Shown piece by piece: positions 8,092 through 8,990 of a stretch of 64,000 nt of DNA (positions are counted from its first letter, which is position 1; every line of letters starts with the position of its first letter). This stretch comes from Burkholderiales bacterium (GTDB lineage Bacteria; Pseudomonadota; Gammaproteobacteria; Burkholderiales; SG8-39). The notes beneath the pieces are model-generated. The model searched no databases and was not told the DNA's origin. It saw nothing but the letters and a program-made list of their open reading frames with translations. The stretch lies in NCBI GenBank assembly GCA_049651845.1, contig JBASCW010000023.1:111-64110 (forward strand), given 5' to 3'. The translations under genes and the position numbers were made by a program.

Positions 8092-8990
8092 CCTGACCGC
8101 CCCGTCACGGCGCGTGCTAGGGCTTCGCCGTCCTTCGCGCACGCGCCGCGCCGGGGCTACGCCTGTGCGCGATCGGCCGCCGTGCGTTCTGCGAGCATCG
8201 TGGACAGGCCGCAGCGGGCATCGAGCCCGCCGCGGCCTGGCAGGCGGCCGGGGTAAATGGGCGGAGCCCATTCAACATAACCGCGCGTTGCGTGCTGGCC
8301 GTCGCTCGCAGCTGAGCTGCTCCGCGCCCGCCAACGCGCGCAGCCTTGCGCGCTGCACGCAACGGTCGGTTATGTCTGGCGCCCCGGCCGCCTGCACGTG
8401 CACACCATGCGCAAGCGCATCGTGTGCACGCAAAGCGAGTCAGCGCGCCCGCGTGCAAGCACGCCGGCGCGAAGCGCACACGTCCCCCGGCCCGCCCAGC
8501 TCGCGCGCAACCTGTGCGCGCTCGCACCCGTCCGCCCCCGCAAGCGGGGGCTCCCCGTTAGCTGCGCAACTCGGGCGAGACCGCGAGGCGAGCGCGCAGC
8601 GCCGAGCCGAAGCGCTCGTTGCTCTTGCCTGGCGGTGACGGCGAAGCCGTGACCGCACTGACTCGCTCTTAAGCGCGCAGGGTGGGTCACGCTGCGCGCG
8701 CTCGGCGGACCGGGGCGCAAGACATAACCGTGTCTTGCATGCACCGTGCGGCTAAAGCGAAGCGCAGGCCGTGCGGGTCGTGCCGCGCACGAGCAGCTAA
8801 GCTGCGAGCGCGGCACTGCCAGGCAAGAGCCGGTTATGTTGAACCGCGCTGGCAGCGCGGTTCACCCCGGGCTGCCGACTACGGCCGCCGCACAACGATG
8901 AAGGTGAACGAACGCGACGACGTAGCTCTGGCGCGGCGCGTGCGCGAACGGCACGCAAGCCTTGCACGCGCCGTGACAGGGCGGCACAGG
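8092..8990. repeat. Long diverged non-coding inverted repeat (arms ~8092-8449 and ~8655-8990) made of conserved boxes and hairpins
   Basis: Exact inverted boxes: 8104-8117/8964-8977 (14 bp), 8134-8152/8930-8948 (19 bp), TTCAACATAACCG 8271-8283/8831-8843, AGCGAGTCAG 8434-8443/8658-8667. Confidence 0.85.

Follow-up and report, generated by a model that had tools for sequence, protein, structure and literature searches.

Results

An element with a recombinase and two hairpins in an rhs locus

The subject of this analysis is a small element that carries a XerC-like tyrosine recombinase gene followed by two inverted hairpins, found in a 64-kb stretch of contig JBASCW010000023.1 (assembly GCA_049651845.1, 3.9 Mb in all), which we refer to as the window. 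The row to which the element belongs starts with an Rhs-type toxin gene that has toxin tip CT1 and immunity; element 1 comes next, then an Rhs core-end fragment bearing toxin tip CT2 and Sel1 immunity, and lastly element 2. In element 1, the recombinase gene is followed by an imperfect palindrome of ~925 bp (8078-9003) that starts at the recombinase stop codon and holds both hairpins, HP1 and HP2 (Table 1); its halves are 76% identical, and it folds with z = -16.7. Labels in C denote contigs of the same assembly, those in L loci and those in G genomes; L012 is C48, and L123 is a locus of the complete genome G005.

Table 1. Features of element 1 and its cargo side, in window coordinates
Feature	Positions	Strand	Remarks
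AP2-like gene	2829-3293	-	
RstR-like helix-turn-helix (HTH) repressor	3312-3692	-	
Primase-helicase	3828-6962	+	CHC2 zinc finger, Toprim, C-terminal P-loop NTPase; Pfam Zn_ribbon_DnaG 8e-20, Toprim_2 1e-17, DNAG_N
XerC-like tyrosine recombinase, 377 aa	6949-8082	+	Pfam Phage_integrase 2e-40; ends 192 nt 5' of HP1
Palindrome left arm	8078-8450	+	Tail hairpin 8099-8157, hairpin 8205-8239, GGGGTAAAT and small stem 8250-8272, HP1
Site A1	8270-8296	-	XerD-like TTATGTTGAAT 8270-8280, central 8281-8286, XerC-like arm 8287-8295
Hairpin HP1, 101 nt	8275-8375		9-bp R-box stem ACATAACCG/CGGTTATGT, 2x2 loop, 10-bp L-box stem, branched loop
Loop 20-mer CGCTCGCAGCTGAGCTGCTC	8303-8322	+	95% complementary to 8791-8810 (HP2 loop); holds a variant of TTAGCTGC
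Site B1	8355-8380	+	XerC-like GCACGCAAC 8355-8363, central GGTCGG 8364-8369, XerD-like TTATGTCTGGC 8370-8380
Enclosed 346-nt non-coding segment	8376-8721		Between the inverted hairpins; small central hairpin near 8533-8555
Palindrome right arm	8660-9003	-	Inverted copy of tail and hairpin, ending in GGCTAAG; missing from the single-hairpin copy on C48
Site B2	8717-8742	-	XerD-like TTATGTCTTGC 8717-8727, central 8728-8733, XerC-like arm 8734-8742
Hairpin HP2, 118 nt	8722-8839		Inverted relative to HP1; 9-bp R-box stem, 2x2 loop, 6-bp L-box stem
Site A2	8820-8844	+	XerC-like CAGGCAAG, central AGCCGG 8828-8833, XerD-like TTATGTTGAAC 8834-8844
Conserved non-coding leader	9004-9208	+	Aligns with C4, C48 and the hairpin-less G005 element
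Displaced Rhs core-end fragment, then toxin tip CT2 and Sel1-repeat immunity gene	9209-10448	+	Starts with an 18-mer equal to 1608-1625

Each hairpin arm is a complete dif-like site

At 8270-8280 the window reads ATTCAACATAA, whose reverse complement agrees with the E. coli XerD arm TTATGTTAAAT at 10/11 positions, and the sequence at 8834-8844 agrees with it at 9/11; these face the partner arms TTATGT (8370-8375) and ACATAA (8722-8727) across 89 and 106 nt, respectively. All of these coordinates, matches and spacings had been put forward in an original prediction made on this DNA, and all hold on rechecking. So does the fold it had drawn: upon refolding, both stretches give a 9-bp stem, a 2x2 internal loop and a further stem of 10 or 6 bp, with z-scores of -4.9 and -4.4 on the + strand and -5.6 and -4.1 on the - strand, equalled by none of 200 shuffles. 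What had to be redrawn is the description of these features as dif sites whose usual 6-8 bp had given way to a spacer of ~90-100 nt. Every arm of a hairpin is in itself a full dif-like site, complete with a XerC-like arm and a centre of 5-7 nt, so that the hairpin comprises two inverted sites plus a loop, and the '90-nt spacer' is the loop between them.

The window has exactly four copies of the stem sequence CGGTTATGT, at 8275(-), 8367(+), 8722(-) and 8831(+), each of which bounds a hairpin; tolerating one mismatch raises the count to 9, compared with 4.0 +/- 1.9 in shuffled sequence, and 0/100 shuffles get that far. Across the whole assembly, the two arm types are confined to five hairpins of element copies on three contigs. 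The XerC-like arms of the window have drifted (GCACGCAAC, GCAAG). Scored with the covariance model R1, HP1 reaches 91.5 bits and HP2, on the - strand, 82.5 bits.

Conservation of the hairpin among related elements

Our set of relatives comprises 77 loci from Beta- and Gammaproteobacteria, with recombinases 48-66% identical to that of the window. The primase-helicase lies directly 5' of the recombinase in 73 of them, Rhs core-end fragments are found nearby in at least 40, and four related metagenome contigs (L026, L052, L086 and L087) have terminal overlaps of 122-131 nt. These loci form a family of small elements that carry, as cargo, an Rhs toxin tip and the matching immunity gene.

Hairpin linkage was counted over the 69 homologous loci with enough sequence 3' of the recombinase, taking covariance-model matches at E <= 0.01 together with a strict double-dif pattern, a total that is a lower bound: at least 35/69 have a hairpin 10-550 nt past the recombinase stop. 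An ACATAA...TTATGT pair, 57-127 nt long, follows the stop in ~20 loci and a related form in many others, and the strict double-dif pattern is present in 16/69 loci but in 0/1380 shuffles.

Two alignments were built: A4, with 23 hairpins and a hand-drawn structure, and A5, with 39 distinct hairpins aligned to the model; HP1 is included in both. Conservation of the arms in homologous elements, on which the original prediction had staked itself, is borne out, as AACATAAC and GTTATGTCTnGCnCC are invariant across A4 (GTTATGTCTnGCnCC in 23/23). The A4 consensus reads ATTCA-ACATAAC-n5-TTnTGCAAAG ... GGTTCGCAnAA-n6/7-GTTATGT-CTGGCGCCCC. Family-wide, an arm consists of a XerC-type arm (TTCGCATAA or TTTGCATAA), a centre of 5-7 nt and a XerD-type arm (TTATGTTGAAT or TTATGTCTGGC). 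The gammaproteobacterial members are close dif mimics (GCATAA-n6/7-CTATGTTAAAT; GCATAATGCTGCGCTATGTTAAAT; CGCATAATTTGCATTATGCTAAAT in L114), with XerD arms that match at 10-11/11 positions.

A side observation concerns 8250-8272, where GGGGTAAAT is followed by a small covarying stem that stands directly 5' of the hairpin in most class I members and overlaps the outer end of the XerD-like arm; it reads AATGGGC..GCCCATT in the window, and AATCGC..GCGATT or AATGGCC..GGCCATT elsewhere.

Compensatory changes and a favoured strand

Pairing in the stems is maintained well beyond what the composition of the columns would give. In A4, 90.2% of cells are paired against 76.1 +/- 1.3 after column shuffling (0/500 shuffles reach the observed value) and 28-45% with slid partners, and the covariation score is 0.336 against 0.114. 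In A5, which was fitted to the model and so leans towards the structure, pairing is 93.2% against 78.4%, with 110 double-change cells against 35. The compensation is concentrated in the 2-3 nt beside the R box - which are GC, CG or AU, with the first position never broken - and in the variable positions of the L box. It can be followed within a single genome, where C48 has GTTGGG/CCCAAC and the window GTTGCG/CGCAAC.

The two strands do not fold equally well: the complement of the recombinase-coding strand is favoured in 22/23 hairpins, by 3.6 kcal/mol on average, and on the top strand A.C mismatches outnumber G.T by 12 to 1, an excess that translates into G.T wobbles on the opposite strand. 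The favoured strand is - for HP1 and + for the inverted HP2. Such an asymmetry is what a single-strand fold, and not a pair of duplex sites, would predict.

The hairpin is separable from the recombinase

When model R1 was run over 300 genomes of the same order, the hairpin was found in 15 other genomes, spread over 13/143 genera (the genus of G000 counted); the same covariance-model search returned none from all 7 relatives in the same family. Only two of the 15, G282 and G288, encode an element-type recombinase, the rest having XerC/XerD-grade matches at 30-40% identity. Conversely, the recombinase is encoded in 8 other genomes, 6 of which lack an R1-type hairpin, and in the complete genome G005 (L123, ~8963-10300, reverse strand) behind the recombinase stop of an apparently intact element come a simple terminator, then the conserved A-rich leader, then the Rhs fragment. 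Hairpins without recombinase, together with the hairpin-less G005 element, mean that the two are not obligate partners.

In the recombinase-less loci, homology is limited to a non-coding unit of 0.5-0.7 kb comprising the tail, the hairpin and ~110-160 nt beyond; the flanks past this unit are unrelated, and no neighbour gene common to the solitary hairpins was found. The G174 island, for example, consists of a P4-type integrase, AlpA, a CHC2 primase fragment, a DUF3987 helicase, type I restriction-modification, MqsRA, the hairpin, an unknown gene and Abi_2, whilst in L120 a RepB_primase-D5 protein ends 296 nt 5' of the hairpin and in L116 an AAA_25 protein lies nearby. Where element genes are present, the unit is better conserved than they are: between the window and C4, the tail, palindrome and leader (8091-9104 against L011 9928-10983) are 85% identical, the element genes 70% in DNA and the recombinases 59% in protein, and the same holds for L028 and L031 of another genome, the genes of such copies being 59-74% identical. 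This pattern suggests module exchange or gene conversion between copies and, with homology limited to the unit elsewhere, the tail-plus-hairpin acts like a portable module. The hairpin itself was considered as a place of mosaic breakpoints and discarded, as identity shifts instead at the start of the tail, just past the recombinase stop.

Inverted pairs enclose cargo

Most loci have a single hairpin. Where hairpins come as inverted pairs, the TGAAT-type arms are always the outer ones and the CTnGCGCC-type arms always the inner ones, and what they enclose differs: on the circular contig L026 a Rhs fragment, toxin tip and immunity gene; in L114, where a class I module faces an inverted class II module, tails included, four genes; in the window and C4, 346 nt of non-coding DNA. 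Given these recurrent pairs around cargo, we read the 0.9-kb palindrome of the window most readily as a pair of boundary modules with an empty slot, the 346-nt segment 8376-8721, between them, a simple inverted duplication being the possible alternative.

How plausible is that alternative? HP2 and the right palindrome arm could be a functionless inverted duplicate of the tail, produced by fold-back at the small central hairpin or left over from a second, inverted element, with only HP1 mattering. Most relatives, and C48 of the same genome, have a single hairpin, the palindrome halves are merely 76% identical, and the end of the right arm is the exact mirror of the recombinase stop codon, all of which would suit a passive copy. 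Set against this, HP2 has kept the invariant arms, the pairing and the loop 20-mer (95%) despite 24% divergence, the C4 paralogue retains the same pair, and inverted tail-plus-hairpin pairs surround different contents in L026 and L114. We regard a passive HP2 as a possibility of the second rank, compatible in any case with what we propose below for HP1.

The recombinase, the other element genes and the element copies

The recombinase belongs, by sequence, to the Xer family and is a predicted competent enzyme. It scores 441 bits with NCBIfam PRK01287 (an 'XerC' subfamily; cutoff 371) and falls below the cutoffs of the NCBIfam XerC, XerD and integron-integrase models (for the last, 116 bits against 265 with TIGR02249 and 91 against 435 with PRK15417). 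The context of its R..K..HxxR..H..Y motif is intact (VRR, GKGRKDR, HLFRH, LGHAK, IYTQV), and among solved structures E. coli XerD, 1A0P, is the closest. Neither a Rep nor a HUH gene was found in the element, whose replication gene is the DnaG-type primase-helicase; no relaxase gene was found in or near it, and no tRNA target for it.

Every copy of the element lies within an rhs locus. Copy 2 of the window (10482-15237) has a gene set 85% identical in DNA to that of copy 1, and its positions 15232-15261 are identical to 8091-8120. It is truncated at 15262, 25 nt past the recombinase stop codon, by an insertion sequence (15262-16814; DDE_Tnp_1/DUF772 transposase, AGTCTGCGCGGCAG inverted ends, CTAG flanks) whose ends match many contig ends of the assembly; a host gene lies beyond the insertion, which leaves copy 2 without tail and hairpin. 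Further copies are on C4, in the order RHS-repeat gene, element, orphan Rhs tip and with paired hairpins retained, and on C48 (1-7457), which contains a Rhs fragment with a toxin tip, a next open reading frame that is perhaps the immunity gene, a repressor, the primase, the recombinase and one hairpin; neither the C48 tip nor the frame behind it has a Pfam match. The first and last 106 nt of C48 are identical and found on no other contig, which indicates a 7.35-kb circle or a perfect tandem repeat. The repressors of the copies are unrelated (an RstR-family HTH protein and the AP2-like protein in copy 1, a different XRE-type HTH protein in copy 2, 10482-10889(-), C4 and C48), despite which the primases and recombinases are close paralogues.

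The gene at 380-2338, which supplies the Rhs core end and toxin tip CT1, begins with a signal peptide and four Big_7 Ig-like domains in place of a YD-repeat shell. It shares the 18-mer ACGTCGATCATCTGAATA, at 1608-1625, with the start of the orphan fragment at 9209-9226, and C48 holds it too; the core around it is only ~72-76% identical, and the 18-mer is where the homology of the orphan begins. It is the likely crossover point for tip displacement, and the arrangement of these arrays fits the C-terminal displacement model of Rhs evolution.

The octamer TTAGCTGC is present in 10 copies in the window, where ~1 would be expected (0/100 shuffles): at 5061, 5073, 6918, 8079, 8558, 8793(-), 9133, 12236, 12248 and 14106. 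These positions coincide with module junctions, namely the primase linker, the stretch before the recombinase start, the recombinase stop, the palindrome centre, the HP2 loop and the stretch before the Rhs fragment. Family-wide, TTAGC[TC]GC recurs ~-2900 and ~-1100 from the recombinase stop.

Discussion

A folded Xer-type site at a cargo boundary?

We propose that the hairpin is a portable, folded or cruciform-extruded recombination site of the Xer type at a cargo boundary, a reading to which we give roughly even odds (about 50%). It consists of two full dif-like cores in inverted orientation with a variable loop between them; folding of one strand, or extrusion of a cruciform from the duplex, would bring the two together as a pseudo-duplex core. 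This folded core would present the conserved R box (ACATAAC/GTTATGT), a partly unpaired centre, the covarying L box and a forked base. Xer-family tyrosine recombinases would then bind the stem and exchange one strand pair beside the R box, where each lineage of elements has 2-3 nt of its own. This exchange may fall to the XerC-like protein whose gene lies 192 nt 5' of the hairpin, to the host XerC/XerD or to both, and replication would complete it. Placed at the boundary of replicative backbone and variable cargo, such a site might serve the exchange of cargo and modules or the resolution of circles. What we observe is the anatomy, with its conservation, covariation, strand bias and distribution; protein binding, strand exchange and biological role are what we infer.

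Several observations weigh against this proposal. Neither a half-site, a hybrid site nor an inverted isoform appeared in the assembly and element copies examined, and the flipping of the central segment envisaged by the original prediction finds no counterpart: no inverted isoform of 8376-8721 was found, the window, C4 and single-hairpin C48 copies sharing one orientation. Covariation alone also fits two duplex sites that need matched central regions. The XerC-like arms of the window match the host dif candidate at only ~6/11 positions, and an L box that covaries freely speaks against binding of host XerC there by sequence. As to the partner enzyme, 13 of the 15 hairpin-bearing genomes of the order survey, one complete genome among them, are without an element-type recombinase, whilst G005 has an apparently intact element without the hairpin module. 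Lastly, the hairpin often adjoins primase-helicase genes of several families, which would also suit a replication or transfer signal. The original idea of a folded substrate for the element recombinase and/or host XerCD thus comes through in part: the compensatory changes and the strand asymmetry fit a folded substrate, but the module is mostly found without the recombinase of the element, which shifts the weight to host XerCD or to an enzyme acting in trans.

The portability of the unit invites a broader version, in which the tail-plus-hairpin would be a self-contained folded recombination site common to unrelated replicative islands, its cargo moved by Xer enzymes of element or host. The cargo seen includes Rhs toxin tips with immunity as well as defence genes; the inverted pairs may be exchangeable slots, and the whole may amount to integron-like exchange that runs on Xer rather than IntI. 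We put this forward tentatively, as a possibility that we do not favour.

Other functions for the hairpin

Could the hairpin instead be a signal for single-strand initiation, or an origin, at which a primase or primosome loads? Two inverted copies would then allow bidirectional priming, and RSF1010 provides a precedent in ssiA and ssiB, inverted priming sites that act bidirectionally. The element always encodes a primase-helicase, recombinase-less hairpins stand beside other primase-helicases (L120, L116, G174), and folding is strand-biased with HP1 and HP2 on opposite strands. However, the conserved letters are canonical dif arms at dif spacing, which a priming site would have no reason to keep, and initiators of different families would not have one origin in common. 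The G005 element, if it replicates, does so without the hairpin, and for several solitary hairpins the nearest 4.5 kb are free of primase genes. On balance we think an origin unlikely.

Less likely again is an oriT used in trans, where the relaxase of a co-resident conjugative element would nick the invariant single-stranded CTnGCGCCCC beside the stem. This flank may resemble, at ~7/9 positions, the MOBQ nick core ..GTGCGCCCT; it is invariant and reaches past the 11-nt XerD arm, folding is strand-specific, and the module is portable and present in small islands without transfer genes. Class II hairpins, though, dispense with CTnGCGCCCC yet keep the double-dif core. Relaxase genes are, as noted, absent from the element and its surroundings, and a blastn search of a plasmid collection with a consensus-like hairpin gave no match.

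Least probable of all, in our estimation, is a structured non-coding RNA, antisense to the direction of the recombinase gene or within its 3' untranslated region: the covariation, the strand bias with its tolerance of G.U on just one of the strands, and the en bloc conservation of the 0.5-0.7-kb non-coding unit would suit it, but there is no Rfam match at gathering thresholds (the sole weak one has E = 0.037), no site resembling a promoter turned up, the letters at the invariant positions are those of recombinase-binding arms, and the palindrome would set two copies on opposite strands.

Within site-specific recombination, four further candidates were set aside. The hairpin is not the crossover by which the element enters rhs: it is intact in integrated (window, C4) and in circular or tandem (C48, L026) copies, the rest of the assembly has neither half-sites nor hybrid arms, and the left junctions hold only a terminator. 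Beside the left junction, at 2807, stands a near-match, CGGTTAGGT, to which nothing at the other junctions corresponds. By sequence, the insertion into rhs is placed at the Rhs core-end repeat (1608 and 9209). Secondly, an integrative element exploiting host Xer (IMEX) and inserted at dif does not agree with copies that lie in rhs loci; the best host dif candidate, ATTTCGCACAATGTGTATTATGTAAACT, is at C42:111449, and the dif candidate of G174 lies 181 kb from its hairpin. Nor is this a chromosomal dif, since there are five hairpins on three contigs, with inverted pairs, 5-7-nt centres and XerC-like arms of ~6/11. An integron is contradicted by the TIGR02249 score given above.

Relation to known systems

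The nearest relative in design is the attP(+) of CTXphi, which Val et al. are said to have described in 2005 as the folded attachment site of an IMEX. Here too, two inverted dif-like sites tens of nt apart on one strand form a forked hairpin that mimics a XerC/XerD core with an imperfect centre, folding is strand-specific, and the attP1/attP2 design recurs. Unlike CTXphi, the present element is no filamentous phage, has no rolling-circle Rep and comes with a Xer-like recombinase of its own; its place of integration is not dif, and integration does not split the hairpin.

The hairpin is also reminiscent of the integron attC site: an imperfect palindrome (57-141 nt) with an outer R box, a structurally kept L box, an unpaired centre with bulges, a variable loop and a favoured strand, placed at cargo boundaries. 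The R box agrees with the attC cores at 6/7 positions on each side (ACATAAC against RYYYAAC, GTTATGT against GTTRRRY). On the other hand, the recombinase is no integron integrase, and there is neither an attI or Pc platform nor an array of promoterless cassettes in one orientation; hairpins occur singly or as inverted pairs, every tandem unit has a recombinase of its own, and the cargo is a toxin tip with its immunity gene, or whole gene sets.

A third comparison is with the pdif modules of Acinetobacter plasmids, reported by Blackwell and Hall, on which host XerCD is thought to act. Both have gene modules bounded by inverted Xer-type sites, with the same modules in different replicons. The boundary here, in contrast, is a foldable pair of sites with a conserved tail of 0.2-0.45 kb instead of a single 28-bp duplex site, many elements have a recombinase of their own, and most loci are single-hairpin.

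Finally, recombinase genes near toxin and immunity arrays have precedents, among them the recombinase-associated rAID systems of Bacteroidales, reportedly from Ross in 2019. As in such arrays of Rhs, toxin and immunity genes, the Xer-like tyrosine recombinase gene is embedded among Rhs tips and immunity genes. In the accessible parts of the respective sources, XerC/D are said to adjoin polyimmunity loci (PMC3482391), integrases are associated with Rhs in bee-gut bacteria (PMC5727410), and Xer systems stand beside Rhs poly-immunity arrays (Martinkus 2026, as cited in 10.64898/2026.07.13.738213); those parts describe no primase-helicase backbone, circular form or folded double-dif hairpin. Our full-text literature search likewise gave no description of the hairpin or of the primase-helicase backbone, and both appear to be new in the searched literature.

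Implications for Rhs loci and replicative islands

If the proposal is true, these hairpins would be tied to elements that bring new toxin tips to Rhs genes, and they are seen in defence islands as well. To our knowledge, tyrosine recombinases act on folded single-stranded DNA in only two systems, the integron attC sites and the attachment sites of the CTXphi type. The hairpins would then constitute a third and widespread class, and would change the view of how cargo is exchanged among small replicative islands. They would also provide a concrete vehicle for the long-standing displacement model of Rhs C-termini and, in the hairpin itself, a testable case in which Xer enzymes, or a Xer paralogue, would recognise the structure of DNA over its sequence.

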